Of a DNA stretch of 64,000 nt, positions 3,001 through 50,618 are shown one piece after another (the stretch's first letter is position 1; the number at the start of each line of letters is the position of its first letter). The DNA comes from a virus (taxonomy: Duplodnaviria; Caudoviricetes): IMG/VR virus record IMGVR_UViG_3300043821_000026, positions 32,001-96,000 of that record, one strand, 5' to 3'. The translations under genes and the position numbers were made by a program. The notes under the pieces were generated by a model. That model worked only from the letters and a program-made list of their open reading frames with translations. It was not told the origin of the DNA and searched no databases.

Positions 3001-6000
3001 CACATATGACAAATTAGATTATACAACAGTATTTAATATACCTTTAAGCCCAACACATATAAGATATAAAGATACTTTATTATCAGAAATATTCGTTCCT
3101 ATTAACTCTACTGATAATATATTTAAAATAACTGACGAAAAAGGTATGTTAGTTAATGATGGATATATTAATGTATATAAAGATGATATTAAATTAAATG
3201 ATAATACAATTAAAATAACTGATGGTATGGTTAATATTGATGGAGTTACAAGTAATAAAGGAAGCTATACTATTACATTTGTTTATGATACAGATGGTAA
3301 GTATTACGCTTCAAATATTACAGCATTTACATTAAATGTTGGTGTTTACAATGTTGATATTAATATTGATAACATAAATTGTCAATATCTTGATAATGTG
3401 TCAATTAAAGGAAATATTTATGATAAAGATGGTGAAAAAGTTTCTAAAGGATTGTTAGATATTTATAAAGTAGATATTAATAATAATAATGAAGAGTTAA
3501 TCGCAGAAAACCTTCAATGTATTGATGGTAATTTTAATTATAACTATAATGTATTACTGAATGCAGGAATATATCATTTAAAACTTATTTATAAAAATAT
3601 TGAAGGAAGTAATGATTACGCTATTACTTCAAAAGTTATATCAATAACTGTATATCCTAGAGATGTTAGTTTTAATAAAAACAATGTTATCAACACAATT
3701 TCTAATACTTTATTATCTAATGAGCAATTCGATATCACAACTACAAAAGGTGTTCTTAATGAAGGAGTAGTTATAGCATCTATTAAAAATGGAGATAAGT
3801 ATGAACAAATTAGTGTATCTAATCTTGGAGTTAATAATGTTGTAAATAATATAGCAACATTAAATTTACAAATACCAGTTTTAGAAGTTGGTACATATCT
3901 TATTAGATTAGAATATATTAATAATAATCATTATGGAAAATCAAATGGAACTAGTATATCAGATAATGTATATGAGGATATTAAATTAAATATTACACCA
4001 AATTATACAAATATAGAATTACAACATATAAGATATGAAAAATTAACAAATAGTGTTGATGATACTGTTTATTATCCTATCACAACTACATTTGAAGCTA
4101 TAGTAAAAGATTCTCAAAAAATACCTGTTAATGTTACAACAGGAAAGATTACAATTTTTGAAAACGGAAAACAAACACAAGAAAAAATACTTACAAATGG
4201 TATGTGTAGATTTGATATTACACCTACTATATTAGGAAATATTGAATTGATTGCAAAATATTCGGATGATACTGGATTATATTCACAATCAAGTATTACG
4301 AAAGATATATTAGTATCACCATTACCAGTTGATATAAGTGTAACTGATATATCAGCATATAACGGTGATATAATCAATATTCCATACACTATTGATTCAA
4401 ATTATGATATTAAATCAAATGGTGAATTAGATGTTGTTATAAATGGGCAAGTATTAACAACTTCATATATATCAAACGGTGCAGGAACTATAAGTTTTGA
4501 AGCACCATTATTGCCAATTAAGAATAATCAAGATACATCATATCCATTATCATTGGTATTGAAAAAATCTAAACTATATGCAGACAATATATACAATGAA
4601 CAATATATTGTTAAGCCTAAAATTATCGATATTATAATGAATGATATTACAGCATCAATATCTGATACAATATTAATAAATCCAACATTTGATAGAAATA
4701 TTACAGGAATTATATATATCTATATAAATAATAATTTTATTGGATTACAAAAAATAGATAATGCTGATAGTATTGAGTATAAATATATCTTACCTGATAA
4801 TATTGATTTAGCAAACAACATAATAACAATTAAATTTAGTGGTAATGAATATTATAAAGAAAGTAGTGAAAACTTTAATCTAAACATTGATAAAAAAACA
4901 AAAAATATTACACTAGAAAATATTAGTGCTAATGTTGGAGGTATTATTACATTCAACTCAACAACAGATTTACCAGATGGTAAAAGAGTTGATTTCTATA
5001 TAGGTGATTCCGCAGTAAGCGAAGGTATTGTTAAAGATGGCAAAGTTAGTGGTACATATACATTACCTTATGAATATAAAAAGAATGAATATATTATTAA
5101 AGCTGTATTTAATGGTTCTGCTGTATTATCAGCTATTCAAAATACTGCTGTATTAAATTTATCTGTTGTTGATATATTATCTGTCGAAACTAGTGGATTA
5201 GAATGTTATAAAGCTGGAAATTTATCTTTATTATCTAAAATTACTGATAAAAATAATCATGCTGTAACAAGTGGTTTTATTGTCTATATGATTAATGATA
5301 ATACATTAGGAACCGTACCAGCTGGTACAGAATTTAACACTACATTACCTAATACATTATTAGACGACTCATATACACTTACTATTAAATATACTACCGA
5401 AGATTCAGATGCTTCTAATTTATATAATAATTATAACACAACTGATACTTTAATATTAAATAAAAATCCATTTAAAATAACTACAAATGCTATTATTGGC
5501 AATATTGGAGATGATATATCATTTAATAATATTACTATACAACACCCAACAACTCAAGAACCAATTAATGGAAATATTGAATACCAAATATTAAATGGAA
5601 CAGAAATATTAGATAGTTTTACAACAACAGTTAGTAATAATATATTTTCTTTAGATTTTATTATACCTACTAATTTAGTACCTAATACATATAGTACACG
5701 ATTTTCATTAAGTAGTGATATTTTTGAAGCAATAACTGGTTCTAATAATTTAATTATTAAATCTATAGATACTGTTTATGTAGATAATACAACTACAACA
5801 AGTAAATTATATGGTACAGTTGATAATCCATTCAATAATATTAGTGATGGTATTAAATCAGTATCAAATAACGGTATTATAAATATTAAAGGAGCATATA
5901 ATACACCATTAACTATTGACAAAAACATCACAATGAATGGTACTGACTGCGTTATATCTGGAGATAATAATGCTCCTATTATAACAAATAACGCAATTGT

Positions 6001-6907
6001 AAGTTTAAATAATATTACATTAAAAGATAATAAAACTACTAATTTAAGTTCCGGAATTGTAAATAATTCCAACATTAATGTACAAAATTGTACATTTGAA
6101 AACTTAAATAGTAAATTTGGTGGAGCTATATATTCAAATAATATTATTAATGTACAAAATTGTACAATTAAAAATAATGTAGGAATAAGTGGTGGAGCTA
6201 TTTATTTAGGTAGACAATCCGTAACTTCACTAATATCTGATAATATATTTAGTAATAATACTGCACAAGATGGTGGAGCTATTTATTCATATAATGCAAA
6301 TAATATTGTAATTGAAAATAATACTTTTGATACTAATATTTGTAGTAATAATGGTGGAGCTATATATGTTAGTGGAAATGGTAATATAGTTAAAAATATA
6401 TTTAAATCTAATAGTACAACAGCATCAACCAGAAACGGTGGAGCTATTGCATTAACTGATGGTTCAATTAATGTAGAATATAATATATTTACTAATAATA
6501 CATATCATGATGGAGATAATATTATATATAATGGTATTGGTGATTTTAACCTATCTAATAATTACTTTGGTAGTAATTTAATTAAATCCGAAATAATGTT
6601 ATTAATTAATGGTTCAGTTAATTTAACAAATTGGGTTAAATGTAGTTATTCAATAAATCCAAATCCAATGATTATTAATAATGATAATGAAATTAATATT
6701 ATATTTAATTCATATGATGGAACTTCGACATCATCTTTGGTAAAATCATTACCTGATTATAATATAGACACTAATTGTACTAATGGTACAATAACTCCAA
6801 CTATTAATAAAATATCAAATAACAATTGCAGTATAATATATAATACTACAGATGTAATTAATTTAAGTATTAAAGTTGGAAACGAGGAAATTAAATTTGG
6901 AGAATAA
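2..6907 (+). CDS. Giant adhesin-like virion protein with Ig-like repeats and right-handed beta-helix (pectin-lyase-like) domains; 5'-partial
   Basis: Frame is open from position 2, upstream of the ATG at 23. Three YV..GS..(K/N)PF motifs, NWWG/NYFG beta-helix caps, GGAIY repeats and many G.V.F...G.A Ig-like repeats, as in Methanobacteriales adhesin-like proteins. Confidence 0.8.
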   Translation, partial: PAGKISIMLHQYTNSTLTTWDKGIEIDTIDVEEVGYNNIYFTIPENVSENKFFLTAEYEGNEYIADTYYENAGDNKFALNLAQVKTIINLPEKQVALGNKTHIPITLSPEDNDIINEGTIKLYISTDYSSYANDIFIGEKNVVNNEVIFDYTVPADLYIKDKQYILKAKYNGINYVATDVAKNIKIIEGLEEIYVSNKNGDDINNDGSEGKPFATISNALSCLKNKGTIYIKNGVYETEDINFNKDVTIIGENDVIIKGKNKQEITFNVLEGFDVRLKSLYFDQIDMKYYFIISGDKLGQNKGALTFNECLLDKMVTIHNLNGFLTINKSAILGTIEATTGTNDLNNNWWGTNTPDTSLNLDNWVTAKLSTSLNTYPTVGDTFDINVDFVNANSEDIYIPRRVSFTSPYGEFSIYSGMIVNNHISTEYSNTTSTCEVNAIVDNEVLKLSIEDYIKNIEIKLQNIETPIGYNTPIKAMVINTANKLIDYGRVEFYLDSNLIRNINVVDGIAQFQLFIDSRFNLNQIYQITAKYYDDKDRYNSSTVSNLKVIEDKDICFVDTVKISGDGSFRKPFNSVKLALKSDNKIIYIKSGIYNEKDWLIDKDVTIKAYDDPVVFNKGSKIFSTGINKNIIIEGIEFSDYDSTNSIDKSLIYNNGNLTLKEVIIDNNKAQDNIIQNDGVLNIVNSAIVKNTGYVLNNEGTATLDYNWWGVNNPDFSLLLKNGTVKYWITMTFNSSISPIKINDVTLLTAALSKYTDGSKIYDLENTNIPSRKGIFKIDSYKDYVDVFKYGSLTPLIDYTDLNNEAKSLYNSIELPNSLKVYLTLNKNTNYYNDNKLVLSCNVLDGYNENVTRGEVEFVIDGDVAGSVNVNNGLATLTISNNLNLSLGAHNIECIFSDTILSPASIKGTFNIQLLPIIIQNEDIIPSIYDLTYKANAVDNNGNIISDEQIFFYIDDEEITSTSDDSSDYIIKDGVINYTLSYNKKIAGTHKLTIKVNPKNTYDKLDYTTVFNIPLSPTHIRYKDTLLSEIFVPINSTDNIFKITDEKGMLVNDGYINVYKDDIKLNDNTIKITDGMVNIDGVTSNKGSYTITFVYDTDGKYYASNITAFTLNVGVYNVDINIDNINCQYLDNVSIKGNIYDKDGEKVSKGLLDIYKVDINNNNEELIAENLQCIDGNFNYNYNVLLNAGIYHLKLIYKNIEGSNDYAITSKVISITVYPRDVSFNKNNVINTISNTLLSNEQFDITTTKGVLNEGVVIASIKNGDKYEQISVSNLGVNNVVNNIATLNLQIPVLEVGTYLIRLEYINNNHYGKSNGTSISDNVYEDIKLNITPNYTNIELQHIRYEKLTNSVDDTVYYPITTTFEAIVKDSQKIPVNVTTGKITIFENGKQTQEKILTNGMCRFDITPTILGNIELIAKYSDDTGLYSQSSITKDILVSPLPVDISVTDISAYNGDIINIPYTIDSNYDIKSNGELDVVINGQVLTTSYISNGAGTISFEAPLLPIKNNQDTSYPLSLVLKKSKLYADNIYNEQYIVKPKIIDIIMNDITASISDTILINPTFDRNITGIIYIYINNNFIGLQKIDNADSIEYKYILPDNIDLANNIITIKFSGNEYYKESSENFNLNIDKKTKNITLENISANVGGIITFNSTTDLPDGKRVDFYIGDSAVSEGIVKDGKVSGTYTLPYEYKKNEYIIKAVFNGSAVLSAIQNTAVLNLSVVDILSVETSGLECYKAGNLSLLSKITDKNNHAVTSGFIVYMINDNTLGTVPAGTEFNTTLPNTLLDDSYTLTIKYTTEDSDASNLYNNYNTTDTLILNKNPFKITTNAIIGNIGDDISFNNITIQHPTTQEPINGNIEYQILNGTEILDSFTTTVSNNIFSLDFIIPTNLVPNTYSTRFSLSSDIFEAITGSNNLIIKSIDTVYVDNTTTTSKLYGTVDNPFNNISDGIKSVSNNGIINIKGAYNTPLTIDKNITMNGTDCVISGDNNAPIITNNAIVSLNNITLKDNKTTNLSSGIVNNSNINVQNCTFENLNSKFGGAIYSNNIINVQNCTIKNNVGISGGAIYLGRQSVTSLISDNIFSNNTAQDGGAIYSYNANNIVIENNTFDTNICSNNGGAIYVSGNGNIVKNIFKSNSTTASTRNGGAIALTDGSINVEYNIFTNNTYHDGDNIIYNGIGDFNLSNNYFGSNLIKSEIMLLINGSVNLTNWVKCSYSINPNPMIINNDNEINIIFNSYDGTSTSSLVKSLPDYNIDTNCTNGTITPTINKISNNNCSIIYNTTDVINLSIKVGNEEIKFGE

Positions 6908-6909
6908 AA

Positions 6910-8316
6910 ATGGCAGAAGAAAATATATCTTATCAATATATAGGTCAAATAAAAGCAACTATTGATGGTCAAGAAGAATCTATAGGTGTTGAAGATATAG
7001 TTAAAACACCTACAACAATTACTATGAATAATATCACACAAGTATATGGTAGAAATATTATATTAGATGCAATAGTTACTGATAATAAGAATATTGGCGT
7101 TAATATTGGAGAAGTATTGTTTGAAATTAAAAAAATTGATGAAGATGTGTCCCAATATAAAACATTAGGATATTCAACAAATAATGATAATGGAAAATTT
7201 ACATACAATATAGAGAATATATCATCTTATTATGAGGGTAGTTATAATATTAGAGCAACATATATTCAAAATAGATATTATAAAGAATCTACCATTACAG
7301 ATGTTGTTTTAAAAATTAAAAAATTAGATATTGAAATATTAATTAACGATACAAATAATGAATATAAAATAGAAAATAATATACTAAATAAATATGTTAA
7401 GCCAAATCATGTCGTTGATATTAGTTTTAACATAAATTTATTAGATAATGGAAATATTGTTGATTCTGACGTTAATAAAATAAGTAATGAAGAAATTAGT
7501 TTTATTATTGATGATGTTGAATATAAAACAAATATTATAGATAATATTGCGCAATATTCTTTTAATAGTAATGATATTGGAGATATTGATAAATTAGAAA
7601 CTATGATAGTTAAAGTATCATTTAAAGGAACTTCTCAATATATTTCTTGTAATAAAATTAGTTATATTAATACAAGTATGACAGAAAAATTGTTATTTGA
7701 TTATATTAATATAATAATAAGCCCACTTAATACTAATATAAAAATTAAAGATATTTATAGTAAATATAATCAACAAACATATATCGGTGCAAATATTATT
7801 GATGAAAATGCTGTTAATGTTAAATTTGGAAACGTTATATACACGATTACTAAAGATGTTGATATTATTACAGATGGAGTAACAACTACTCAAAAACAAA
7901 CTATAGAAACTGGAGAAGGAAAAGTACAAGATGGATATTTTTATGTAATTACATCTATTAAAGACGATATCACAAATACAGAACAGTCTGATATTATAGA
8001 ACTTCCTGATTTAATTCCAACTAAAATAGAATTAACTATATCTCCATCTACAACTGTATCAGCAAATAGTAATGTTGTATATACAGCTCATGTTTATAAT
8101 AGTGGTGATAATACTATAAATATAACCGAAGGTGTAGTGATATTTTTAATGGATGATATTATCCAAAAAACTGTAGAATTAAATGAAGATGGTATAGCTA
8201 CATATCAAGATACTTTAACAAGTAAGGCAACTCATAAAATTAAAGCTATTTATAAAGGTATTTTTGAATATAATAGTTCAGAAAGTGATGTACAAAATTT
8301 AACTGTAGGAGATTAA
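6910..8316 (+). CDS. Ig-like (Big_3-type) repeat structural protein
   Basis: Repeated G.V.F / G.ATY / I.A.Y.G..Y.SS Ig-like pattern; GGAG RBS; coupled to neighbours. Confidence 0.7.
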   Translation: MAEENISYQYIGQIKATIDGQEESIGVEDIVKTPTTITMNNITQVYGRNIILDAIVTDNKNIGVNIGEVLFEIKKIDEDVSQYKTLGYSTNNDNGKFTYNIENISSYYEGSYNIRATYIQNRYYKESTITDVVLKIKKLDIEILINDTNNEYKIENNILNKYVKPNHVVDISFNINLLDNGNIVDSDVNKISNEEISFIIDDVEYKTNIIDNIAQYSFNSNDIGDIDKLETMIVKVSFKGTSQYISCNKISYINTSMTEKLLFDYINIIISPLNTNIKIKDIYSKYNQQTYIGANIIDENAVNVKFGNVIYTITKDVDIITDGVTTTQKQTIETGEGKVQDGYFYVITSIKDDITNTEQSDIIELPDLIPTKIELTISPSTTVSANSNVVYTAHVYNSGDNTINITEGVVIFLMDDIIQKTVELNEDGIATYQDTLTSKATHKIKAIYKGIFEYNSSESDVQNLTVGD

Positions 8317-14238: not shown

Positions 14239-15753
14239 GTGATTATTATGGATTGGAATCTTCCAGAGATTCTAGATGTTGAATTTTTAACTGACGAAGA
14301 AGTTGAAGAATTAATTAAAATTAAAGCAAACATTGATGATATTTATACTAAATTAGAAACAGATAATAAAATTATCGAAAAGTTACAACCATATATAACT
14401 TCTGATGCTATCGATACTAAATACATAAGTAAGGATTTGTTGAATACCAAATTAGATTTATATTTATTAAAAAGTGAAGCTGGGATTACCTATGTTAATA
14501 ATTCACAACTTACTGGTGCTTTAAATTCATATATGAATACGGTAGATTTATATGATAATTTTTACAATAAAGGACGAACTGATGGTAAGATAGCAACTTT
14601 AGAGGGTACTATTAATAATAAACTAAGTACTTGTATGAAAATATCTGATGCTTATTCTGCATTTGTTACTATGGAGCAATATACAGGTCAAAGCCTTGTT
14701 GGAATAAATAACTTAGAAAAAAAAATAATATATCTTTTCGAAAATAATAATATTTTATTTAATCAATATATGGATTCAACTGTATTATCAAGTTCAGAAT
14801 GGACCGTTACAAATTGTACTGCAACTGATTATTCTAGTAATGGATATGGAGAAGTTACTATTGGAACATCAAAAACAGTTGGTTCTTTAATTATGAATAA
14901 TTTTATTAAGGTAGATAATAATTGTTCTATTAGTATTAATACATATAATCCATTTAACATTATTTACAATAAAGGACGAACTGATGGTAAGATAGCAACT
15001 TTAGAGGGTACTATTAATAATAAACTAAGTACTTGTATGAAAATATCTGATGCTTATTCTGCATTTGTTACTATGGAGCAATATACAGGTCAAAGCCTTG
15101 TTGGAATAAATAACTTAGAAAAAAAAATAATATATCTTTTCGAAAATAATAATATTTTATTTAATCAATATATGGATTCAACTGTATTATCAAGTTCAGA
15201 ATGGACCGTTACAAATTGTACTGCAACTGATTATTCTAGTAATGGATATGGAGAAGTTACTATTGGAACATCAAAAACAGTTGGTTCTTTAATTATGAAT
15301 AATTTTATTAAGGTAGATAATAATTGTTCTATTAGTATTAATACATATAATCCATTTAACATTATTACAGATACTAATAAAATACTTGCAGTATCTCCTA
15401 CTTATTCATCAGGAACAAGTATTACATATAAATCTTCAGATGGTACAGTTATATCAACAGCACAAGATAGTACTGCAAGTAAGCCATCAATTATTATTAT
15501 AACCATTATAAATAATAATATTACTTGTAATATTGATGGTAAGAAAATAACATTAACAAATGATGATATAATTAATAATTTTACAAATATCAAACTTTCA
15601 GTTACTAGTAATGGAACAAGTGCGTTTTATATTAATGATATTTTTACTATATCAAAATTAACCACTCCACAAACAGATATAGATTCATTACAATCAAGAG
15701 TAACTGCCCTCGAACAAGGTCTTACAACTTTAGATACCTACTTAAAGAGCTAA
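14239..15753 (+). CDS. Fibre/adaptor protein with lectin-like beta-sandwich and internal duplication (module 3 adaptor)
   Basis: KANIDDIYTKLETD shaft motif; 134-aa exact duplication; C-terminal coiled coil. ATG at 14248 after AGGTGA is the likelier start. Confidence 0.6.
   Translation: MIIMDWNLPEILDVEFLTDEEVEELIKIKANIDDIYTKLETDNKIIEKLQPYITSDAIDTKYISKDLLNTKLDLYLLKSEAGITYVNNSQLTGALNSYMNTVDLYDNFYNKGRTDGKIATLEGTINNKLSTCMKISDAYSAFVTMEQYTGQSLVGINNLEKKIIYLFENNNILFNQYMDSTVLSSSEWTVTNCTATDYSSNGYGEVTIGTSKTVGSLIMNNFIKVDNNCSISINTYNPFNIIYNKGRTDGKIATLEGTINNKLSTCMKISDAYSAFVTMEQYTGQSLVGINNLEKKIIYLFENNNILFNQYMDSTVLSSSEWTVTNCTATDYSSNGYGEVTIGTSKTVGSLIMNNFIKVDNNCSISINTYNPFNIITDTNKILAVSPTYSSGTSITYKSSDGTVISTAQDSTASKPSIIIITIINNNITCNIDGKKITLTNDDIINNFTNIKLSVTSNGTSAFYINDIFTISKLTTPQTDIDSLQSRVTALEQGLTTLDTYLKS
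14561..15364 (+). repeat. Exact in-frame 402-bp tandem duplication
   Basis: 14561-14962 and 14963-15364 appear identical (tttacaataaaggacgaac...catttaacatta). Confidence 0.95.
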
Positions 15754-42453: not shown

Positions 42454-43170
42454 CTATAACTTTGTATATTTTGTATTATTTTTTCTTAAAAAATGGTATA
42501 TAGATGATTTTGGTAAATTAAAATCTTTTTCTATACCAGATATAAAGTATCCATTATTCTTTAAATCAATCAATTTATTTATTCCACCAATATTTTCGAT
42601 ATATTCATTTGTAAATGTTATTTTTGGATGTTGATAGTAATTTGAGTAAAAAATAAAAGCTTCTTCTTCTGTGTCAAATCCTTTTACTATATCCATTTTT
42701 TTATATTGCTCTATTCTTACTTCATATTTACAATCTTCATTTAATATAATAGAGTCTTTAACATTATTAAATGTGTGTTTTTTTATATATATATTATCTG
42801 ATAAATAAACATTTTTTAATCTAAAATCTTTATAGTTATTATTTAAATAATGAACATATTTATCAGAACCATTTTTATATAATAAAGATAAATATGTTGG
42901 TTTACAATTAATATTAGTTATTAATCTTTTTCTATAAATATTCCATAAATTATTTTCAACAATATCTTTGACACCATTGCAATATTTGAATACAACATGA
43001 GCTTTATCTCGTGGTTTTGGTTTATCATAAGTATAAAACTTACATACATCACAATGTTTACATTCATTAAATTTATTAATATAATTATTATATTCCTTTA
43101 TAATATCTTTTGCATCTTTTCCATGATTAAATGTAACAAAATCTACAAAAGGTATCTTTGCATCTTCCAT
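42454..43170 (-). CDS. Degenerate HNH-AP2 endonuclease-like DNA-binding protein with C-terminal HTH
   Basis: VHYLNNNYKDFRLKNV (eroded HNH), YEVRI...GFDTEEEAF (AP2-like), ISGIEKDFNLPKSSIYHFL (HTH); AGAGGTG RBS. Confidence 0.55.
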   Translation of the reverse strand: MEDAKIPFVDFVTFNHGKDAKDIIKEYNNYINKFNECKHCDVCKFYTYDKPKPRDKAHVVFKYCNGVKDIVENNLWNIYRKRLITNINCKPTYLSLLYKNGSDKYVHYLNNNYKDFRLKNVYLSDNIYIKKHTFNNVKDSIILNEDCKYEVRIEQYKKMDIVKGFDTEEEAFIFYSNYYQHPKITFTNEYIENIGGINKLIDLKNNGYFISGIEKDFNLPKSSIYHFLRKNNTKYTKL

Positions 43171-43548: not shown

Positions 43549-43622
43549 TCCCCCCTGCCGGACTCGAACCAGCAACATTTCGGTCTACAGCCGAATGCTC
43601 TACCAAATTGAGCTAAGAAGGG
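43549..43622 (-). tRNA. tRNA-Tyr(GTA)
   Basis: Cloverleaf; anticodon arm TTCGG-CTGTAGA-CCGAA; C1:G72 and short variable loop (archaeal type); no CCA. Confidence 0.95.
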
Positions 43623-43625
43623 TTA

Positions 43626-43713
43626 CGCCAGTAACAGGATTTGAACCTGCGATATCGCAATGGATAACAAGATTTCAAGTCTTGCGTCTTTGGCCGAACT
43701 AGACTATACTGGC
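43626..43713 (-). tRNA. tRNA-Ser(TGA)
   Basis: CAAGA-CTTGAAA-TCTTG arm, long variable arm, G73. Confidence 0.95.
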
Positions 43714-43740
43714 CTATATTTGTCAGTCTATAAATGACAA

Positions 43741-43824
43741 CGCTGATAGCAGGATTCGAACCTGCGAGGTTCTATTGAACCATCAGGGTAGCAACCTGAC
43801 GCCTTACCGCTAGACTATACCAGC
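43741..43824 (-). tRNA. tRNA-Ser(GCT)
   Basis: TCAGG-TTGCTAC-CCTGA arm, long variable arm, G73. Confidence 0.95.
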
Positions 43825-43827
43825 AAA

Positions 43828-43899
43828 TAGCTCCATCAGGAGTCGAACCTGAATCTACAGGGCCAAAGCCTATAATGATTGCCATTACACCATAGAGCT
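43828..43899 (-). tRNA. tRNA-Gln(TTG)
   Basis: ATAGG-CTTTGGC-CCTGT arm; A1:U72 (archaeal Gln determinant). Confidence 0.93.
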
Positions 43900-43904
43900 A
43901 TAAT

Positions 43905-44092
43905 TAAGGGTTTTTAATAGGTGGACCCTCATAACCACCTTCTCTTTTAGGTGTGAATTTTTACGAACACCATCAAGATTTTACTCTTGAAATATGCAGA
44001 TTTATCATTGACCACTAGTAAGTCTAAAATCTGTGGGGTATTCTCACCAGCTTAAACTATCTTTCAATTGGATTTGAACCAATATCTCCCCT
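43905..44092 (-). ncRNA. Candidate ncRNA: circularly permuted tRNA-like domain + three hairpins + H-type pseudoknot
   Basis: T-arm precedes D-arm, closed by GGGG/CCCC; 3' pseudoknot AGGTGG/CCACCT and AGGGT/ACCCT; lies between two tRNAs. Confidence 0.65.
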
Positions 44093-44094
44093 AA

Positions 44095-44168
44095 AGGCAT
44101 TAGAGGGAATTGAACCCCCAACCTTAGCTTTACAGGAGCCACGCTCTGCCTAGTTGAGCTATAATGCC
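44095..44168 (-). tRNA. tRNA-Thr(TGT), atypical (C33)
   Basis: GGCATTA/TAATGCC acceptor, TGGCT-CCTGTAA-AGCTA arm, GGTTCAATTCC T-arm. Confidence 0.8.
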
Positions 44169-44273: not shown

Positions 44274-47213
44274 TTAATCATTATGATTGACTCTATCTTT
44301 AAGCTCTTGTTTTTTACCTGCATTCCATTTTTGTGTTACAGTAAAATATCCTGTAATTCTACTCATACTATAAACATTTTCAGAGCCACAATAAATACAA
44401 GAGTCATTATCACCATTTGCTTGTTTACCACATTCTTTGCATACTGTGAAAGCAGAAGTATATGCCCAAAATTGTATATTTTGTTTTTTAATTTTCTTAG
44501 TTAAACTCATAAGAGATTGTGGGTCCATATAAGCCTCACCTAAGAAACAATTAAGGATACAACCTGCTGGTTCATATTTATGATAAGTATTAGCGTTTTT
44601 AATATGTTCAATAATACTTCCTTGAGAATCTACAGGTAAGTGATTACTATTTGTATAATAATATCCACCTTCAACTCCTTTACATAATATATCAGGATAT
44701 ATTTTTTTATCAATTTCTGCAAAACGATGAGAACATGATTCAGCAGGAGAACCTAAACAAGCAAATCTTAATCCATATTTAGCTTTTTGTTTTTTAGAAT
44801 ATTCATTCATAAATTCTAAAATTTCTTCTCCATATTTATTACCTTCAGGAGTATCTAAATCATATCCTGTAAGCATTTTAACAGCTTCATATAATCCACA
44901 AGTACCAAATGTAAATGAAAAGTTACTAATATCATATAATGGTTTACCAGTATATTTATCTTCTTGTAATAAAAACCCTAAATATCCTTCTGTATTAGCT
45001 CTATCTTCAAAGTTTTGTTTTCTATCCAACATAGACATTGTCCCAATATTCATAAAATGTTCAAGATATTGTTTAAATTCATCCATATTATTACTGATAT
45101 AAGCCATTCTTGGAAGATTAAAAGTTATGTAAGCAAAGTTTCCTACATTAAGAGTATCTATTTCCCAATTACCAGTCCAATTAGTTCCGTTAGCAGTTCT
45201 ACAATTTTCACTATGTATACCACCTAATCCACAAACATAATTATGATTATTTTCTATTGTTAAATCATATACATTATCATCATTATTTACAACTTCAATA
45301 TCTTTAATAATAGTATTATTTTTTGGAGAATAATTAATACCGAATGTAACTCTATAATTTGGTTTCCAATTATTTGTTTTACCTTTTCTATTATCAATAT
45401 AAAGAGTGTTTTGTCTTCCTATATATGATAAAGCATATAATACATCGGTTACTAAATTTTTATCAGAACAAGACCAAACATAGTTATTAGATTGTTTATG
45501 AGCATCTAACATTAAACCTTTAATAATATTAGCTATTTTATTTTTATCAGACCAACATTGAGGAAATGTTTTCTCCCCGTTTTTAGTATATAGTTGTACT
45601 AATTTATCTCTTATATTTAATTCTCTAATATTAATAGAGTAAGTACCATTATTTTGTTTAGTAATATCATATTTATAACCTAATTTATCGCATAAATTAG
45701 TAATATATTCTTTTTTCCAATTTAATTTTATATGAAATTCTATAGCATTACTATTTCGCAAAGCTCGTTCATTACTTCGTATATAACCATCAGCTAAAAA
45801 AGCACCTATAAATTCATATTCTAAATCATCAACTGGGATAAATGGTTCGTCAATATAGTTATATAATTCCATACCTACTTTTAAATTTTCAGATTTAATA
45901 ATACCATCTTTAGTTGGTAATTTATGATTATCGGTTACTTTAAAAATATATCCATTATTACAAGTAATCTTAAATACCTTTTCAGAAACTGGTTTTTTAA
46001 TAATATTAATAACTTTATTCCATTCCTTTGTACCATCTTTATTATATGTCATTACATTATCATTTAATTGTAACTCTTGAGGATATTTAAAACCTTTATC
46101 TGTCATAACAGGGGTATCAGAAGTTAATGCCCCCATTACAGTTGTTGCTGTACCGTTTTGAGGAAGGTCTTGATTTATAAAATATGGAGTAGGGAATTTA
46201 GCTATTAATTCATGAATATTTAATAATAATTCATCATATTCTTCACCCATAAATTCATCACGAAGATTAAATAAAGTATTTGGGAAAATATGACATTTAC
46301 CCTTAGCGTCACCTTCATATAAGACTTCTATAAAAGCGTCTATAATCATACGAGCTTCTTTTTTATAGTCATTATATACACCAACTTCACGACCACCGGG
46401 ACCATATGCTGTTAAATCTCGCATAAATGGTGGAACATCTAATTCTAACCCAACAGATGAAAATACTACTTGACCTTTTGATATTAAAGACATATTACAA
46501 TTAAAAATAAAATTTTGAATACATTGTTTTACTTCTTCATATGTTAATCCTTCTGCAAATGGCGCTAAGAATATATTAAAGTATGGATACCCTTGACCTC
46601 CACTAAGAACCGTAGAGCCAGCCATAAAAGCTTGTAAGAGATGATTGAGAAGTACATTTAAGCTTTTAGCTGGTGAAGCACAAGAACAGTTTATACCTTG
46701 ACCATCAATTTTTAAACCATTTTTAATGAAAAATCTGATATCATAGCTAATACAGTTTGCAGGACGAATATTATATGCTTCCATATCATGTATATGAATA
46801 TATCCATCTGTATATGCTTTGCTACATTCTTCGGGCATAGTTAATAGTGCATATTCTTTTAATACAGCATCTGATGCGTATTTAACCACTTGTTCAGGAC
46901 CAAAATTAATATTAGCATTATCTTTATTACCACTATCGATTAAATTTTCTAAAGCAGATACGGATAATCCCAATTTTCTACTTTGTTTTTCTGTATCAAA
47001 TAACCCATCTTTAGTTAAATGATAATTAATCATATCTCTTATTTGTGCTGTGGAGATTTGATTAATTCCATCAATATTATTAACTTTTCTAGCTATTCTA
47101 TTCTTAATATTTTCTGCTTTTTCTTCATCTAAATCAGTTTCATATAATATATGTTCTTTTATTATTTTTGGTTGAAATTTAGATATATCACCTGTACTAT
47201 TTACGACATCCAT
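44274..47213 (-). CDS. nrdD: Anaerobic (class III) ribonucleoside-triphosphate reductase with intein
   Basis: N-terminal ATP cone (MDVVNSTG; start at 47213 preferred to 47288), IHIHD, FPNT, MG-[intein]-CRT, PAES, YYTNS, CxxC zinc site, glycyl-radical SRITGY. Confidence 0.95.
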   Translation of the reverse strand: MDVVNSTGDISKFQPKIIKEHILYETDLDEEKAENIKNRIARKVNNIDGINQISTAQIRDMINYHLTKDGLFDTEKQSRKLGLSVSALENLIDSGNKDNANINFGPEQVVKYASDAVLKEYALLTMPEECSKAYTDGYIHIHDMEAYNIRPANCISYDIRFFIKNGLKIDGQGINCSCASPAKSLNVLLNHLLQAFMAGSTVLSGGQGYPYFNIFLAPFAEGLTYEEVKQCIQNFIFNCNMSLISKGQVVFSSVGLELDVPPFMRDLTAYGPGGREVGVYNDYKKEARMIIDAFIEVLYEGDAKGKCHIFPNTLFNLRDEFMGEEYDELLLNIHELIAKFPTPYFINQDLPQNGTATTVMGALTSDTPVMTDKGFKYPQELQLNDNVMTYNKDGTKEWNKVINIIKKPVSEKVFKITCNNGYIFKVTDNHKLPTKDGIIKSENLKVGMELYNYIDEPFIPVDDLEYEFIGAFLADGYIRSNERALRNSNAIEFHIKLNWKKEYITNLCDKLGYKYDITKQNNGTYSINIRELNIRDKLVQLYTKNGEKTFPQCWSDKNKIANIIKGLMLDAHKQSNNYVWSCSDKNLVTDVLYALSYIGRQNTLYIDNRKGKTNNWKPNYRVTFGINYSPKNNTIIKDIEVVNNDDNVYDLTIENNHNYVCGLGGIHSENCRTANGTNWTGNWEIDTLNVGNFAYITFNLPRMAYISNNMDEFKQYLEHFMNIGTMSMLDRKQNFEDRANTEGYLGFLLQEDKYTGKPLYDISNFSFTFGTCGLYEAVKMLTGYDLDTPEGNKYGEEILEFMNEYSKKQKAKYGLRFACLGSPAESCSHRFAEIDKKIYPDILCKGVEGGYYYTNSNHLPVDSQGSIIEHIKNANTYHKYEPAGCILNCFLGEAYMDPQSLMSLTKKIKKQNIQFWAYTSAFTVCKECGKQANGDNDSCIYCGSENVYSMSRITGYFTVTQKWNAGKKQELKDRVNHND
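45204..46130 (-). mobile_element. Intein (309 aa) with LAGLIDADG homing endonuclease; begins with Ala
   Basis: ALTSDTPV...VTDNHKL (block B)...FIGAFLADG...VYDLTIENNHNY...HSEN/C; removal restores MGCRT. Confidence 0.9.
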
Positions 47214-47323
47214 ATAATCATCTCTTAATTTGTTTAATTTTAAAAAAAATTTTAATAAAATAAGTTTAATTTTATATTTTATTTTCAATTATAATGTATA
47301 TTTTTTAAAGTATATAAAGATTT

Positions 47324-47515
47324 TTATTTTTTTCTTTGTTTTTGCAAATCTTTATCAACTTGACTTGCAGTTCTCTTTCTGCAACTATCAAAGTATCTAC
47401 AATCCCAGTCACACTTCATTAATGAAATATCTTTATCTCTTTTTTTACAATAACATTTATTCTTTATTAGCTTCTTGATTGTTGTCTTTTTCATCTTGCT
47501 CTTTCTCCAATTCAC
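47324..47515 (-). CDS. Small Cys-rich hypothetical protein
   Basis: CYC...CDWDC....C; start uncertain. Confidence 0.35.
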   Translation of the reverse strand: MNWRKSKMKKTTIKKLIKNKCYCKKRDKDISLMKCDWDCRYFDSCRKRTASQVDKDLQKQRKK

Positions 47516-47590
47516 AATCTTCCATATTAATAATTTTTCTTAATTTATTACAGTAAACTTTTCCTTGTTTCGCTAACTCTATTAAATCCA

Positions 47591-48217
47591 TTATATAGCC
47601 TCATTTAATCTTATTTTTATAAGATAATTATTAATATCTTCATAATAATTATCAGATATATTGTTAACTTTATCATTTGATAATTGAAATTTTATATCAA
47701 GCAACTTTTTATTTAAAGCAAAATATTCATCTATCGAATTTACACTTTTTGGTTTAAATTCTTTATCATATAAAAAACAATAATCTTCCATTATTTTATT
47801 ATATTCATCTATATCGTAATTTTTAGAATCAATGATAGAATCAATTCTATTAATTAATTCATCATTAAAATAAAACATTGGTACTGTATCATTTAAAATA
47901 GAAAGAATATCTAATCGTTTTTGATTATATTTTGTTTTAACATCTGTATCATGTGATAGTAGTTTGTAAAATGATATATCTCCTTTATTATATATATTTC
48001 TTAATACAATGCCTATTTCAAAAAAATTAAATATAACATTACTATTTATTTGACTATTTAAAGTAGGTGATGGTTCATGTGTAACATCTAAAAAATTTTT
48101 TGTATTATCTATATATACACCAGTAATATAATCATCAATCTGATAAATATTAAAAAAATAACGTTTCTGTTCAGAAAAATGATTAACAATAGAATCTAAA
48201 ATAGCAGGAGAAATCAT
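47591..48217 (-). CDS. Hypothetical protein, possibly a degenerate nucleotidyltransferase-fold protein
   Basis: ITGVYID...FFEIG...KGD.SFYKLL resembles phage nucleotidyltransferases but lacks GS/DxD. Confidence 0.35.
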   Translation of the reverse strand: MISPAILDSIVNHFSEQKRYFFNIYQIDDYITGVYIDNTKNFLDVTHEPSPTLNSQINSNVIFNFFEIGIVLRNIYNKGDISFYKLLSHDTDVKTKYNQKRLDILSILNDTVPMFYFNDELINRIDSIIDSKNYDIDEYNKIMEDYCFLYDKEFKPKSVNSIDEYFALNKKLLDIKFQLSNDKVNNISDNYYEDINNYLIKIRLNEAI

Positions 48218-48723
48218 TAAATCTCTCCTTTATGTTTATCATCTTGATAATCACCATCATATTTTATATCACAATTATTTAAATCAAAGCTCATCATTTG
48301 AGCAAATCTTTCATTCATTTCGATACAAAAATTATTTTGACTATGATTTATCATCATAAAAGTTAATGTACCATTGTATCCAGCATCACCAACGCAAGTA
48401 CGAACATCTACCCCACATCTTAATAATGTACTACGAGGGAAATATAATTGTACTTGGTCTTTTGGAATATTCATTGGTTCTGATACTTCTGCAATATATA
48501 CTATGTCAGGATATAAAGTATATATTCCATTTTTAGTATTAACGGGTTTATATATTGGTAAGTTTTTATGTCCATTATAAATACCTGTAGGACATCCATC
48601 ATTATCTTCAATAATATATAATTGTCCTAATCTTAAATCTACACCATTTGGTTGTAAAGTTTCACTATCTGTTTCGTAATTATCTTTTAAATATAAATTT
48701 CCATTAATCATATTGTTCACCAT
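48217..48723 (-). CDS. dut: Archaeal-type trimeric dUTPase / dCTP deaminase family
   Basis: QPNGVDLRL, PRSTLLR.G, DAGYNG, ERFAQ, YDGDYQ. Confidence 0.85.
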   Translation of the reverse strand: MVNNMINGNLYLKDNYETDSETLQPNGVDLRLGQLYIIEDNDGCPTGIYNGHKNLPIYKPVNTKNGIYTLYPDIVYIAEVSEPMNIPKDQVQLYFPRSTLLRCGVDVRTCVGDAGYNGTLTFMMINHSQNNFCIEMNERFAQMMSFDLNNCDIKYDGDYQDDKHKGEI

Positions 48724-49378
48724 TTTCTATTTTATAAAATTCTGTATATAAAAATCTTGCAAATTTAACTGCTATCTTTCTTTGTGTCATATATTTAATA
48801 TGTTTCATTGTATAATTCGAATGTTTAAATAAATATTTATCAAAATATTCGTTATACATTTGTTTATATTCAGGGTTGTATTTAATTAACTTTTTAACAA
48901 CTTTTAATATAACTTTATTTAATCTATCATTATATTGAATTTTTGAAGTATCCTGTTTAGGATTACCAATTATTTCACCATATTGTTTATTTTTTTTAGT
49001 AATTTTTTGATATGAATTTCCCATTTTATTGACTGGAGATAATCCACAATAATATATGAATGAATTTTTATTCTTAAATCTATTAATATCTTTAATTAAA
49101 ACAATTAACTCACCTGCATCATAAATAGATATTCCGTCTATATGTTCTAAGCAATCATAGTATTCTGGAATAAATGATATTGTTTGTTTAATTTTTTTAT
49201 ATAATAAATCTAATGGAGCGTCTAACGAATTAATACTAATATTAATTAAAGAATTTCTTGCATCATTTGTTAAACCTATAAAATTATTAATTCTAGATTT
49301 ATTTGATTTTTTAGCTTCAAATAATGTTTTATTAGTATTGATTAAGATATTTAATACTTGTAATTGTGCATCATCCAT
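48704..49378 (-). CDS. IS110-C-terminal/Nop-like domain protein lacking RuvC (TasA-like)
   Basis: Coiled coil then IDGISIYDAGELI..IKDINRF.....F..YCGLSP and Y..Y....HI..M..RKIA.KF; no N-terminal DEDD domain; no IS ends. Confidence 0.7.
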   Translation of the reverse strand: MDDAQLQVLNILINTNKTLFEAKKSNKSRINNFIGLTNDARNSLINISINSLDAPLDLLYKKIKQTISFIPEYYDCLEHIDGISIYDAGELIVLIKDINRFKNKNSFIYYCGLSPVNKMGNSYQKITKKNKQYGEIIGNPKQDTSKIQYNDRLNKVILKVVKKLIKYNPEYKQMYNEYFDKYLFKHSNYTMKHIKYMTQRKIAVKFARFLYTEFYKIENGEQYD

Positions 49379-50019
49379 TATCTCACCTTATTAATTCCAT
49401 TAACAGTTTTTTGTCCTATACCTTTTATATTAAGTAGTTCTTCATCTGTTGCTTGTAATACACCTAATGGTGTTTTAAATTCTTTTAGTAATAATTTAGC
49501 TGTTTTTTTACCAACATAATCAATACCTAAAAGAACTTGAATTTTCGAACTAGCGTCTTTCTTTTGAACAATAGGAGGTTCAATTGGTTCAGTATTTTTA
49601 TTAACAGTATTAATTATACTTTCAATTAACAATGGCATTGATTTTTTTGTTTCACATTGTAATACTGGAACTTTATATCTAACAGATAAAGAAGCTATAT
49701 TACTATAGTATTGTTTTCTAGTAAAATTTTGATATTTATAATTAATATCGTCTAATTTGCCATAAATAATAATATAACAAAAATCATATTTTTCTTTCAT
49801 CCTTAATGCTTGGTCTTGAATGTGTCTACTATTAAAGCTAGACACGAAATCACTTACACTTTTAAGTTCAATCATAATATTAGATAAATCTTGTCTTTTA
49901 ATTAAAACATCACCATCTTCATTATGAGATACGGAGCAAATGCCTGAAAAGTATTCATCAATTATTTTTATTGTACTTGAATCTTCTCTATCATCTATTA
50001 AAATTTTTAAATCATTCAT
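49378..50019 (-). CDS. ERCC4/XPF-family structure-specific nuclease with HhH2
   Basis: IDDRE, GDVLI, IELKSVSDFVSS, IDYVGKKTA and IKGIGQKT HhH motifs. Confidence 0.9.
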   Translation of the reverse strand: MNDLKILIDDREDSSTIKIIDEYFSGICSVSHNEDGDVLIKRQDLSNIMIELKSVSDFVSSFNSRHIQDQALRMKEKYDFCYIIIYGKLDDINYKYQNFTRKQYYSNIASLSVRYKVPVLQCETKKSMPLLIESIINTVNKNTEPIEPPIVQKKDASSKIQVLLGIDYVGKKTAKLLLKEFKTPLGVLQATDEELLNIKGIGQKTVNGINKVR

Positions 50020-50618
50020 TTATAATCATCTTCCGTTATACGATACCAATCATACTTATCATTAACGTATAAGGAATGATAAGCTGTGGCTTCTATAGCT
50101 TTTTTTATTCTATTACTTGGTTTATTTCTTTTAGTAGAATATAATGAACCAAGAGCTAATTCTTTACCGACTCCTATAGCTACATAATCTCCATCAGGTT
50201 CAAATAAACCAAGATTATCTTCAATCTCAAATATATCACCATTATATACTATTAAAAAATTACTATTAGTTTTAATTTGAGTACCATTCATATCTACTAG
50301 TCCTGATAGTTCTAATTCAGTTTTTAAACAATATAGGAAAGAATTAATTAAATATGTTCTAAAATCTGTTCCTTGTATATAATCAGGAGCTTTATAAGAA
50401 TATCTAATAAAATTGAAAATTGAAAATATACCTGAAAAACCGATAATTAAATGTCTTGTATCAATCTTATTTCCATTTTCATCTACCATATTAAATGGTT
50501 TAGAACAAATTTTAGGATTTTTTGATATTTCTATATTATTTCCTGAACTGATTGCACTATCACTACCAATATATACATCACCTGTTTTTTTATATTTAAT
50601 TGCTACAATTACTGTCAT
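50016..50618 (-). CDS. Ntn-hydrolase, proteasome-beta/HslV-like protease
   Basis: N-terminal M-T-VIVAI, GSDS, PKI, GFSG, AIGVG..LALG. Confidence 0.75.
   Translation of the reverse strand: MTVIVAIKYKKTGDVYIGSDSAISSGNNIEISKNPKICSKPFNMVDENGNKIDTRHLIIGFSGIFSIFNFIRYSYKAPDYIQGTDFRTYLINSFLYCLKTELELSGLVDMNGTQIKTNSNFLIVYNGDIFEIEDNLGLFEPDGDYVAIGVGKELALGSLYSTKRNKPSNRIKKAIEATAYHSLYVNDKYDWYRITEDDYK

Follow-up and report, generated by a model that had tools for sequence, protein, structure and literature searches.

A nuclease-less Tas-family protein lacking a detectable canonical TIGR array is a core replication-module gene in tailed viruses of Methanobacteriales-type methanogens

Introduction

The TIGR-Tas proteins, a family described only recently, are compact and bind and cut DNA under RNA guidance. 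A tailed virus, of which a stretch of 64,000 nucleotides (the window) was analysed together with the rest of its 138.5-kb genome, encodes a Tas-family protein that has the architecture of TasA, in that a coiled-coil hairpin and a Nop/IS110-type C-terminal domain are present and a nuclease is absent. This TasA-like protein falls into a separate clade with a long branch, which is vertically inherited as a single-copy core gene of the viral replication/recombination module, and the lineage carrying the clade consists of tailed viruses of Methanobacteriales-type methanogens. As judged from sequence searches, the clade is without a canonical TIGR array. The explanation that we favour, although we regard the chances for and against it as about equal, is that an array-less Tas clade was recruited to replication or recombination, where it would probably act with the XPF nuclease encoded next to it, and that canonical guidance was lost or replaced.

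Organization of the TasA-like gene and its neighbours

A preliminary description of the window had reported a nuclease-less reading frame at the position of the TasA-like gene (Table 1). The reading frame is real, and the sole Pfam match of its product is PF02371 (Transposase_20; E 9.4e-9, score 36 bits with the cutoff at 21.3, residues 75-128); PF01548 is unmatched in Pfam, in keeping with the reported lack of a RuvC/DEDD domain. The motifs that had been quoted, DGISIYDAGELIVLIKDINRFKNKNSFIYYCGLSP and KHIKYMTQRKIAVKF, exist in the protein, the dot spacing given for them being sometimes one off.

Table 1. Features of the TasA-like gene region and of the genome segment examined for guides (window coordinates)
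Feature	Position	Strand	Basis
TasA-like gene (Tas-family, Nop/IS110-type C-terminal domain), 224 aa	48704..49378	-	ORF, PF02371, profile and model matches
Coiled-coil hairpin, aa 3-67	49178..49372	-	Modelled helices H3-32 and H38-67
Nop/Transposase_20-type C-terminal domain, aa 71-219	48722..49168	-	Pfam, model, structural alignment
Variable beta-hairpin/'wedge' insertion, aa 113-150	48929..49042	-	pLDDT 67-85, strands E116-137
XPF/ERCC4 nuclease with C-terminal (HhH)2	49378..50019	-	PF02732 2.7e-13, HhH_2/HhH_5
XPF/TasA-like junction AGGTGAGATAATG: Shine-Dalgarno-like AGGTGA, then TAATG	49376..49388	-	Sequence read directly
dCTP deaminase/dUTPase-like gene, overlaps TasA-like 3' end	48217..48723	-	PF22769 6.9e-22
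tRNA cluster Tyr, Ser, Ser, Gln, Thr	43549..44168	-	Rfam RF00005 x5, ARAGORN
Sole TIGRFinder-style stem-loop unit in genome, CAA-N9-TG-GTGT-CAA-N9-TG	42957..42988	-	Judged chance

The XPF gene ends in AGA TAA and the TasA-like gene starts with ATG GAT, so that the A at position 49378 is common to both; AGGTGA lies ahead of this start at 49388-49383 on the minus strand. The shared base supports the translational coupling through TAATG that had been proposed. At the other end, the stop codon TAA (48706-48704) falls within the start region of the downstream gene. The overlap had been described correctly; in Pfam the dCTP deaminase-like family PF22769 (7e-22) is a better match than dUTPase (3e-8), the two belonging to one superfamily. 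Because neighbouring genes overlap the TasA-like gene on both sides, there is no space for IS ends, the absence of which had also been noted, and a search of the 138.5-kb genome found one copy of the gene.

Relationship to Tas, IS110 and Nop proteins

The AF2 model of the TasA-like protein has a pLDDT of 92.3 and a pTM of 0.86 (an earlier model, built from 3 sequences with a pLDDT of 64.6, was set aside). The coiled coil recognized earlier from the sequence is an N-terminal two-helix hairpin in this confident model; it aligns to the coiled coils of 9mty, 9w04 and 8wt6, and no domain precedes it. In Tas proteins this element mediates dimerisation and contacts the duplex. In comparisons of profiles, the subfamily profile (A3) matched TaTasR (9MTY) with an E-value of 9.6e-24 over both halves and IS621 with 8.9e-4, and the broader profile (A2) matched TaTasR (9MTY) with 4.4e-47, TasH with 8e-19 and IS621 with 8e-7. 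The preliminary description had called for a structural comparison with IS621, Nop5 and Tas proteins, and the order obtained was the same. VIA placed TaTasR (9mty_B) first with a Z of 20.1 and an rmsd of 2.4 over 193 residues, residues 2-224 of the model corresponding to TaTasR 108-302, followed by SpTasH (9W03/9W04) with a Z of 17.7, IS110-type proteins with 15.5-15.8 (IS621, 8WT6, 15.6) and Nop5/Prp31 with 7.4-8.4 over about 145 residues. The ranking by Foldseek, in which 9mty and 9w04 were the best matches, agrees. Thus, the TasA-like identity proposed earlier stands, and TaTasR and TasH are supported as closer relatives than either IS110 or Nop5, even though IS621 shares the coiled coil and the Transposase_20 domain.

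The low rank of Nop5 bears on the possibility that the protein is a Nop5 mimic which hijacks the archaeal box C/D sRNP machinery of the host (L7Ae, fibrillarin and host sRNAs). The likely methanogen host has box C/D sRNPs and the Nop fold is common to both proteins, but the Z of 7-8 for Nop5/Prp31 is far below the 18-20 for Tas proteins. Furthermore, the TasA-like protein begins at the coiled coil and hence lacks the N-terminal fibrillarin-binding domain of Nop5/Nop56/58, and we consider such mimicry very improbable.

Among the 47 homologues scanned, PF02371 was found in 40 and the DEDD domain (PF01548) in 0; P0063-P0065 from the same hit list do carry a DEDD domain. A phylogenetic tree places the protein in a clade of 19 rows (SH-aLRT 100, stem 0.9) nested within a nuclease-less Tas-like clade, which is itself apart from the DEDD-bearing IS110 proteins. 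The wedge insertion is missing from the 190-residue forms of the clade, being a gap in L010 and in P0008-P0020. In IS110-family transposases the catalytic serine lies in the loop that follows the A-G-L-x-P motif. In an HMM alignment to IS621, in which the placement of this loop is uncertain, the loop reads 'ESGSS', the clade has no conserved Ser there and L010 has no loop. A search for longer fused forms, including an XPF-Tas fusion, found none, which counts as weak evidence.

Conservation within the replication module

The TasA-like gene occupies a fixed position in the replication module of 10 virus genomes or contigs, the order of genes being DnaE, a Cas4-like nuclease, AEP primase, (an HslV-like protein), XPF, the TasA-like protein, dCTP deaminase and RNR. 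The same module is found in the related loci L002, L003, L004, L007, L008, L009 and L010, with amino acid identities of 29-86%, and the dCTP deaminase/dUTPase-like gene is downstream of the TasA-like gene in all loci. Among related loci the TasA-like protein diverges at the rate of XPF, Cas4 and primase, and the dN/dS of its gene, 0.09-0.2, shows purifying selection and is similar to that of the neighbouring genes. Codons 24-83 are the most diverged patch between strains (pN 0.205 and pS 0.67 between the window and L002).

These observations bear on whether the gene could be what is left of a decaying IS110 element, as the labels might suggest: Pfam and PHROG read 'transposase', and GenBank/NCBI give relatives the same name. 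A fragment of this kind is nearly inconceivable given a DEDD domain in none of the 47 homologues, a single copy with both ends overlapping its neighbours, synteny across viruses whose module proteins are about 30-45% identical and the low dN/dS. The protein further differs from IS110/IS621 in that a bridge-RNA-bearing flank is absent along with DEDD/RuvC and IS ends. A check of synteny across related viruses had been recommended earlier, and it found the TasA-like gene behind XPF in the same replication module, so that the gene is not a sporadic remnant.

A search of 185,579 species genomes returned one match only, and the 147-kb contig carrying it probably represents a virus binned in error. 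The host of the focal virus is most likely a methanogenic archaeon, to judge from the relatives of XPF and DnaE, which occur only, or have their best matches, in Methanobacteriales viruses. No match to the TasA-like protein was found in GenBank phages by tblastn; ORF53 of PhiF1 was missed because it is too diverged, and was reached through XPF. PhiF1 (GenBank MK994522) is a cultured Methanobacterium virus whose host is Methanothermobacter thermautotrophicus, and it has the same module as the focal virus (DnaE, a PD-(D/E)XK nuclease, ERCC4, a Transposase_20-like protein, an HslV-like protein and RNR), ORF54 encoding ERCC4 and ORF53 a 'transposase 20 superfamily-like protein'. In hhalign, ORF53 aligns with the clade profile (85%, E 6e-6); it also matches 9MTY (5.6e-7). 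It differs from the focal protein in being a short form of 206 residues that lacks the wedge insertion, and in PhiF1 a short coding-looking stretch lies between ORF54 and ORF53.

Search for a TIGR array and guide RNAs

The preliminary description had seen no 36-nt TIGR array in the window, and this extends to the whole genome and to its relatives. The recommended scan of the full 138.5-kb genome, made for both dual-repeat and stem-loop TIGR units, detected nothing above chance there or in 7 related loci, the stem-loop part being limited to TIGRFinder-like motifs. Neither PhiF1 nor any of 5 whole related records, two of which are at least 96% complete, contains the canonical two-interval pattern, and TRF found no array with a period of 18 or 36 nt in the window. 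As positive controls, the scanner found arrays in Salicola phage CGphi29 and in 15 of 19 loci from other Tas clades (L011 and L012, which have collagen-like repeats, are poor controls). Relaxed motifs gave 2-5 hits per kb throughout three (near-)complete genomes; in the focal genome, 0 of these lay near tas, and no conserved non-coding DNA was found beside the TasA-like gene in any locus compared. The suggestion that a guide lies elsewhere therefore fails for canonical guides. Since 6,685 arrays have been reported at 20,096 tas loci (bioRxiv 10.64898/2026.09.09.750476), a missing array is common and is not proof that a guide is absent.

Several candidate guide loci were rejected individually. 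The orphan RNAs at 43.2-44.1 kb that had been put forward as guides are five ordinary tRNAs according to Rfam and ARAGORN, two of which are separated by a 195-nt spacer. The sole stem-loop unit (Table 1) compares with 0.4 per genome in shuffled sequences and lies inside a 238-residue ORF (42454-43170); it is found in the 99.6%-identical copy of L002 and is absent from L003. A CCA/TG unit at 49021-49058 on the plus strand, antisense to tas, is one of 13 genome-wide, has no flanking stem and does not occur in L003. The gap between unk208 and RNR (47289-47590) is occupied by small ORFs, and the iteron-like CCCTCTTAAAGG repeats at 129.2 kb of the genome (G000) have a spacing of 26-65 nt, which is not TIGR geometry.

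Several known systems can be set beside the focal clade. TasA proteins (Faure et al. 2025, PMC12045711; Xu et al. 2026, 10.64898/2026.09.09.750476) likewise consist of a hairpin and a Nop-type C-terminal domain without an N-terminal nuclease and are encoded by viruses, and the profile and fold of the TasA-like protein best match solved Tas proteins. The focal genome and its relatives, however, have a TIGR array of neither architecture, and the gene, which is vertically inherited, forms part of the replication core behind XPF, unlike an accessory locus linked to an array. TaTasR and SpTasH use 36-nt dual-repeat tigRNAs, for which the focal clade has no array, and their nucleases are a fused RuvC or HNH as opposed to the separate upstream XPF gene found here. 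[quoted passage not shown] That branch has RuvC and lacks the coiled coil, whereas the focal clade is of the TasA type with the coiled coil intact and is tied to XPF and the replication operon.

Residues lost and retained

Conservation of residues was judged on an unbiased set of 25 Tas-like representatives. The clade has lost Q20, E56, G84, W108, G144 and K179, each of which is conserved in at least 72% of these representatives. In SpTasH, Y289 and H296 belong to a C-terminal loop that processes dual-repeat pre-tigRNA (PMC13421893). The TasA-like protein stops 5 residues past its last helix, and the Y/H processing tail is thus absent; none of the 18 clade members has the tail column P..Y..H, which 19 of the 25 other Tas-like representatives do have. 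The stem-loop TIGR class is also without this tail or loop. Loss of the tail and of several family-wide residues argues for an altered ligand, or for none. On the other hand, the clade keeps the general RNA-binding fold and the basic residues R23, R29, H193 and R200/K201, together with N26, which like R29 lies in the coiled coil, and PhiF1 ORF53 keeps the H..NRAKRK helix. From this pattern of retained residues, RNA binding by the clade may persist. An 'invariant NRAKRK' among the fetched loci was discounted, as this motif was itself the pattern used to fetch them. Four possible RNA runs, which are represented by contigs only, gave a fragmentary cover that is uninformative on small RNAs.

It is possible, though we doubt it, that the protein is a working RNA-guided TasA, acting as a site-specific DNA-binding repressor or regulator to which the adjacency of XPF is incidental. 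Its guide or guides would then be of a non-canonical kind, lone, situated within a gene or far away, or supplied by the host; host box C/D sRNAs and viral transcripts are examples. By fold and family it groups with RNA-guided effectors, it retains N26/R29 and the H193 and R200/K201 of the terminal helix, and other TasA proteins are RNA-guided repressors (bioRxiv 10.64898/2026.09.09.750476), a study in which array-less branches are acknowledged as an open question; stem-loop tigRNAs, moreover, may be few and may lie within genes. Against these points stand the failure of even relaxed motifs to bring out an above-chance unit in any of three (near-)complete genomes, the lack of a conserved non-coding flank, the lost tail and family-wide residues, and a position as a core gene of the replication module that is unlike that of accessory array-linked tas loci.

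The XPF neighbour and possible functions

D9, E12, G36, D37, E51, K53 and D57 of XPF are invariant in 8 orthologues, in which the motif GDx(n)E-R/x-K-x3-D is present with its middle R varying (L/V/T/R), and from these residues XPF appears catalytically intact. The stop and start codons of the XPF and TasA-like genes overlap as TAATG or TAGTG in 6 of 8 loci (the focal locus and L002, L003, L004, L007 and L009), and the overlap persists at only about 40% protein identity. Small ORFs part the two genes in L010 and PhiF1, and vir249 has an XPF homologue without an annotated Transposase_20 gene nearby. A predicted complex of two TasA-like chains and XPF, computed from our own alignments, had an ipSAE of 0.17 against a mark of 0.32, which speaks neither for nor against a complex, and a literature search for a connection between Tas and XPF found none. 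XPF, encoded separately and upstream, is the only nearby nuclease to set beside the fused RuvC and HNH. XPF or the Cas4-like nuclease may act as an effector in trans, as the preliminary description had suggested.

In the favoured explanation, recruitment of the clade to replication or recombination, the TasA-like protein would dimerise through its coiled coil, as other Tas proteins do, and would be a subunit that grips nucleic acid, whether unwound DNA, branched DNA or an RNA-DNA hybrid, during viral replication or recombination. XPF would be its most likely co-worker, the resulting 'nuclease + Nop' arrangement, split over two proteins, being the counterpart of the fused TasR (RuvC+Nop) and TasH (HNH+Nop), and canonical tigRNA guidance would have been lost or replaced. 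As a counterpoint to such a partnership, adjacency within one viral lineage can be mere inherited operon order. An unlikely alternative dispenses with both guide and partner, the protein being an architectural or origin-binding replisome protein that bends DNA, or an operon regulator, functionally apart from XPF. Its behaviour as a core gene within the replication module would suit such a role, the bend that Tas dimers impose on DNA is about 180 degrees (PMC12045711), the genome has a cluster of iteron-like repeats at another place, and the small ORFs of L010 and PhiF1 speak for independence from XPF; however, nothing links the TasA-like protein to the iteron-like repeats, and the overlap with XPF has been kept through considerable divergence. 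Less probable again is a split guided nuclease, encoded by two genes and composed of XPF and a TasA-like dimer, in which the Nop module would place XPF on DNA by means of RNAs that do not come from an array, candidates being short primase products, viral transcripts and host box C/D sRNAs. If true, the Tas scaffold would have, besides RuvC and HNH, a third nuclease partner, here one that acts in trans and serves viral replication or recombination and not conflict between elements.

The clade is conserved like the polymerase, primase and nucleases of the module, and this conservation, the coupling to XPF and the arrays not found in three (near-)complete genomes together suggest that the Tas/Nop scaffold has been put to a housekeeping use, which may be guide-less or differently guided. 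An evolutionary link joining IS110, box C/D RNPs and solo Nop proteins has been proposed, and the clade bears on it too. Since the cultured pair of PhiF1 and Methanothermobacter thermautotrophicus has the same gene pair, an array-less role for a Tas protein and an effector with a separate nuclease are both directly testable.

Family and architecture

The TasA-like gene (see table) had been described as encoding a nuclease-less protein of the Nop/IS110 type, with neither a RuvC/DEDD domain nor IS ends, and each of these points holds. The sole Pfam match of the protein is PF02371 (Transposase_20; residues 75-128, E 9.4e-9; score 36 bits, cutoff 21.3); the Pfam scan did not match the IS110 DEDD domain PF01548, and PHROGs returned weak 'transposase' families. 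A word-index search found just two close relatives, and an exhaustive profile search yielded 68 proteins, mostly of 190-300 amino acids. PF02371 occurs in 40 of the 47 homologues scanned and the DEDD domain in none of the 47; three true IS110 proteins with DEDD form the bottom of the match list.

A 12-sequence subfamily profile matched TaTasR (PDB 9MTY, identity confirmed in PMC12045711) across both protein halves with E 9.6e-24, compared with merely 8.9e-4 for IS621, and a broader profile gave 4.4e-47 for TaTasR, 8e-19 for TasH and 8e-7 for IS621. The AlphaFold2 model (47 sequences; pLDDT 92.3, pTM 0.86) comprises a two-helix coiled-coil hairpin (residues 3-67) followed by a helical C-terminal domain, a beta-hairpin insertion of lower confidence (residues 113-150) and a terminal helix that stops 5 residues short of the C-terminus. 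In VIA-align the best match is TaTasR (Z 20.1, rmsd 2.4 over 193 residues, model 2-224 on chain 108-302), followed by TasH (Z 17.7), ISCro4/IS621 (Z 15.5-15.8) and, weakest, Prp31/Nop5 (Z 7-8); Foldseek ranks them identically. That the protein is a Nop5 mimic, the lowest-ranked likeness in this series, is very improbable. Given the order of both fold and profile matches, the protein corresponds to a Tas protein stripped of the nuclease, the layout known as TasA, and it belongs to the Tas family by fold, sequence and architecture. The known proteins nearest to it are those of the TasA type and, in structural terms, TaTasR and SpTasH. In the tree, its clade (19 rows, SH-aLRT 100, stem of 0.9 substitutions per site) is nested within a nuclease-less Tas-like group, apart from the DEDD-bearing IS110 proteins.

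A fixed gene of a viral replication module

Direct reading of the junction bore out the proposed TAATG coupling to the ERCC4-type nuclease gene XPF: the XPF 3' end (AGA TAA) and the TasA-like start (ATG GAT) have the A at 49378 in common, and AGGTGA lies eight bases upstream of the start. The TAA stop (48706-48704) falls within the first part of the gene that follows; the reported overlap is thus real, and this gene, called dUTPase in the preliminary description, is better identified as dCTP deaminase-like. Because both neighbours overlap the TasA-like gene, there is no room for IS ends.

Features in the genome and in PhiF1 (coordinates of the window unless another record is named)
Feature	Position	Strand	Details
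tRNAs	43.5-44.2 kb		five, standard
Spacer	43900-44095	-	195 nt, between tRNA-Gln and tRNA-Thr; no Rfam or ARAGORN call
Anaerobic RNR gene	44274-47288	-	1004 aa
Cys-rich small ORF	47324-47515	-	63 aa; ORF of same length and position in L002
Small ORF	about 47459-47590	-	about 44 aa
dCTP deaminase-like gene	48217-48723	-	PF22769, 7e-22; weaker score as dUTPase
TasA-like ORF	48704-49378	-	224 aa, clean ORF
Divergent segment of TasA-like gene	about 48900-49310	-	compared with L002
HslV/proteasome-beta-like peptidase gene	50016-50618	-	phrog_1040, 8e-17; inside replication operon
CCCTCTTAAAGG repeats	G000 C1:129204-129440		seven direct copies
PhiF1 module	L034 (MK994522) 4977-7036		ORF54, coding-like stretch, ORF53, ORF52; from annotation and profile matches

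In tblastn searches with the replication genes, seven other viral contigs have the identical order: DnaE, Cas4-like, Cys-rich, AEP primase, (HslV-like), XPF, TasA-like, dCTP deaminase, unknown, RNR. Identity of the TasA-like protein across them is 86, 69, 44, 41, 38, 36 and about 30%, its divergence being in step with that of XPF, Cas4 and the primase. The XPF stop overlaps the TasA-like start (TAATG or TAGTG) in six of the eight loci; the two are 2 nt apart in contig L008, and two small ORFs separate the genes in L010. The catalytic motif of XPF is intact by sequence comparison. The TasA-like gene has a dN/dS of 0.09 against contig L002 and about 0.2 against L003, similar to its neighbours, and is under purifying selection at a fixed position. 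An origin as an IS remnant, suggested by the transposase-type profile matches, was rejected on its single copy in the genome, the lack of space for ends, the module shared by seven contigs and these dN/dS values, and its probability is negligible; the gene is not a sporadic, decaying IS110 fragment.

A scan of 185,579 species, one genome each, found a single relative, the sole match in a cellular genome: L033 (JAGAIU010000011.1, 146,781 bp), a contig of 147 kb in a 'Clostridia' MAG obtained from water deer cecum; the contig is probably a mis-binned virus. The entry P0003, labelled 'Candidatus Pacebacteria transposase', likewise looks like a viral contig binned into a bacterial MAG.

The TasA-like gene also displays mosaic allele exchange. 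Relative to L002, the flanks (XPF and the dCTP deaminase-like gene) have 97-99% nucleotide identity and codons 24-150 a pS of 0.5-0.67, and the tip of the coiled coil (codons 24-83, pN 0.2) accounts for most of the amino-acid change; on this comparison, codons 24-150 carry an imported divergent allele. The HslV-like gene is present in L002, L003 and PhiF1 (ORF52), and was not detected by tblastn in L004, L007, L008, L009 or L010.

Among GenBank phages, XPF homologues are confined to viruses of Methanobacteriales, and DnaE finds its best match in Methanobacterium virus PhiF1, both of which agree with a methanogen host. PhiF1 has the order ORF54 ('putative ERCC4-type nuclease'), a short coding-like stretch, ORF53, the HslV-like protease ORF52 and RNR. 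ORF53 (206 aa) is annotated solely as a 'transposase 20 superfamily-like protein'; hhalign pairs it with the clade profile (85%, E 6e-6), and alone it matches 9MTY (E 5.6e-7). Judged by these matches it is a Tas-family protein despite its annotation. Since PhiF1 has been cultured, it offers a culturable system for testing the pair of ERCC4 nuclease and Tas-family gene.

Guide arrays

Arrays were sought with a scanner rebuilt from the published TIGRFinder logic (bioRxiv 10.64898/2026.09.09.750476). The basic element of this logic, the interval, consists of box C (3 nt), a spacer and box D (2 nt). Intervals chained at distances of 4 nt count as a dual-repeat array, and a pair of intervals separated by no more than 15 nt and flanked by a stem of 5 bp or longer counts as a stem-loop unit. 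The same code recovers the array next to the gene at 14395-15324 of Salicola phage CGphi29. Of 19 metagenomic loci from other Tas clades, 11 proved to have canonical dual-repeat chains of the CCA/TG type and a further 4 to have stem-loop arrays, these 15 all on the gene's strand and within a few hundred bases of it; the four blank loci are contigs of 1.0-3.4 kb.

The preliminary description saw no 36-nt TIGR array in the window, and the 138.5-kb genome is blank as well. With box C and box D combined in all 1,024 ways (spacers 8-12, gaps 3-6), it contains just one 4-interval TAA/TA chain. A single stem-loop unit, against 0.4 expected per genome, lies inside an ORF and was discarded, and relaxed motifs occur at background density throughout with none near the TasA-like gene; nothing exceeded chance. 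Scans of the related loci were equally blank, and the canonical two-interval pattern was not found in PhiF1 or in five whole related records, which include genomes of 139 kb (96% complete) and 121 kb (100% complete). Since the positive controls pass, the absence is real: the clade lacks canonical TIGR arrays. The suggestion that a guide lies elsewhere found no support as far as canonical guides go, and the supposed orphan RNAs are standard tRNAs; the array scans showed no box C/D dual-spacer layout in the 195-nt spacer between two of them. The genome is about 92% coding and the replication operon dense, an apparent gap between RNR and an unknown 208-aa gene upstream being taken up by two small ORFs.

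The array defines a TIGR-Tas system, so these proteins are named an array-less Tas-family clade rather than a TIGR-Tas system. One array-less Tas branch was posed as an open question in a 2026 preprint (bioRxiv 10.64898/2026.09.09.750476); it consists of compact TasR proteins without a coiled coil, whereas the present clade, of TasA type, has its coiled coil intact and resides in a replication module with a link to XPF. No paper connecting Tas proteins with XPF was found in the literature.

Possible roles

The protein lacks the C-terminal loop bearing the Y/H dyad, which in dual-repeat Tas proteins (SpTasH Y289/H296) serves pre-tigRNA processing (PMC13421893). Compared with 25 other Tas-like representatives from an unbiased exhaustive search, the clade retains R23, R29, D97, Y110, G112, N150, Y171, Y175, H193, R200 and F206 and has lost Q20, E56, G84 (the second glycine of the HhH hairpin), W108, G144, K179 and the entire tail. 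At the sequence level these losses are signs of changed function. It is possible, if rather unlikely, that the protein is still an RNA-guided TasA, with many family residues retained and guides that escaped recognition by scans that recover arrays in other clades.

About evenly poised is a reading in which the protein, by analogy with all solved Tas proteins, would form a coiled-coil dimer, may grip nucleic acid in replication or recombination, and would cooperate with XPF, an arrangement that would parallel TasR and TasH, in which a RuvC or an HNH nuclease, respectively, is fused to the Nop part. A weak search for longer forms found no fused XPF-Tas protein. That the protein plays an architectural part without a guide and unconnected with XPF is improbable, the XPF overlap in six of the eight loci speaking against it.

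Other observations

The anaerobic RNR has 1004 residues in the window and L002, 1016 in L009, and 660-670 in L003, L007, L008 and L010, and tblastn of the window RNR to L010 breaks at about residues 372 and 696. The length difference and the split indicate a putative intein of about 320 aa in some strains only.

About 33 kb beyond the window end, the copies of CCCTCTTAAAGG sit in a 768-nt AT-rich intergenic gap. Their spacing of 26-65 nt is not TIGR geometry, and they were rejected as an array. One copy forms a terminator-like hairpin, a repeated AAAAATTGTATTT motif lies ahead of two copies, and the repeats look like iterons or operators.
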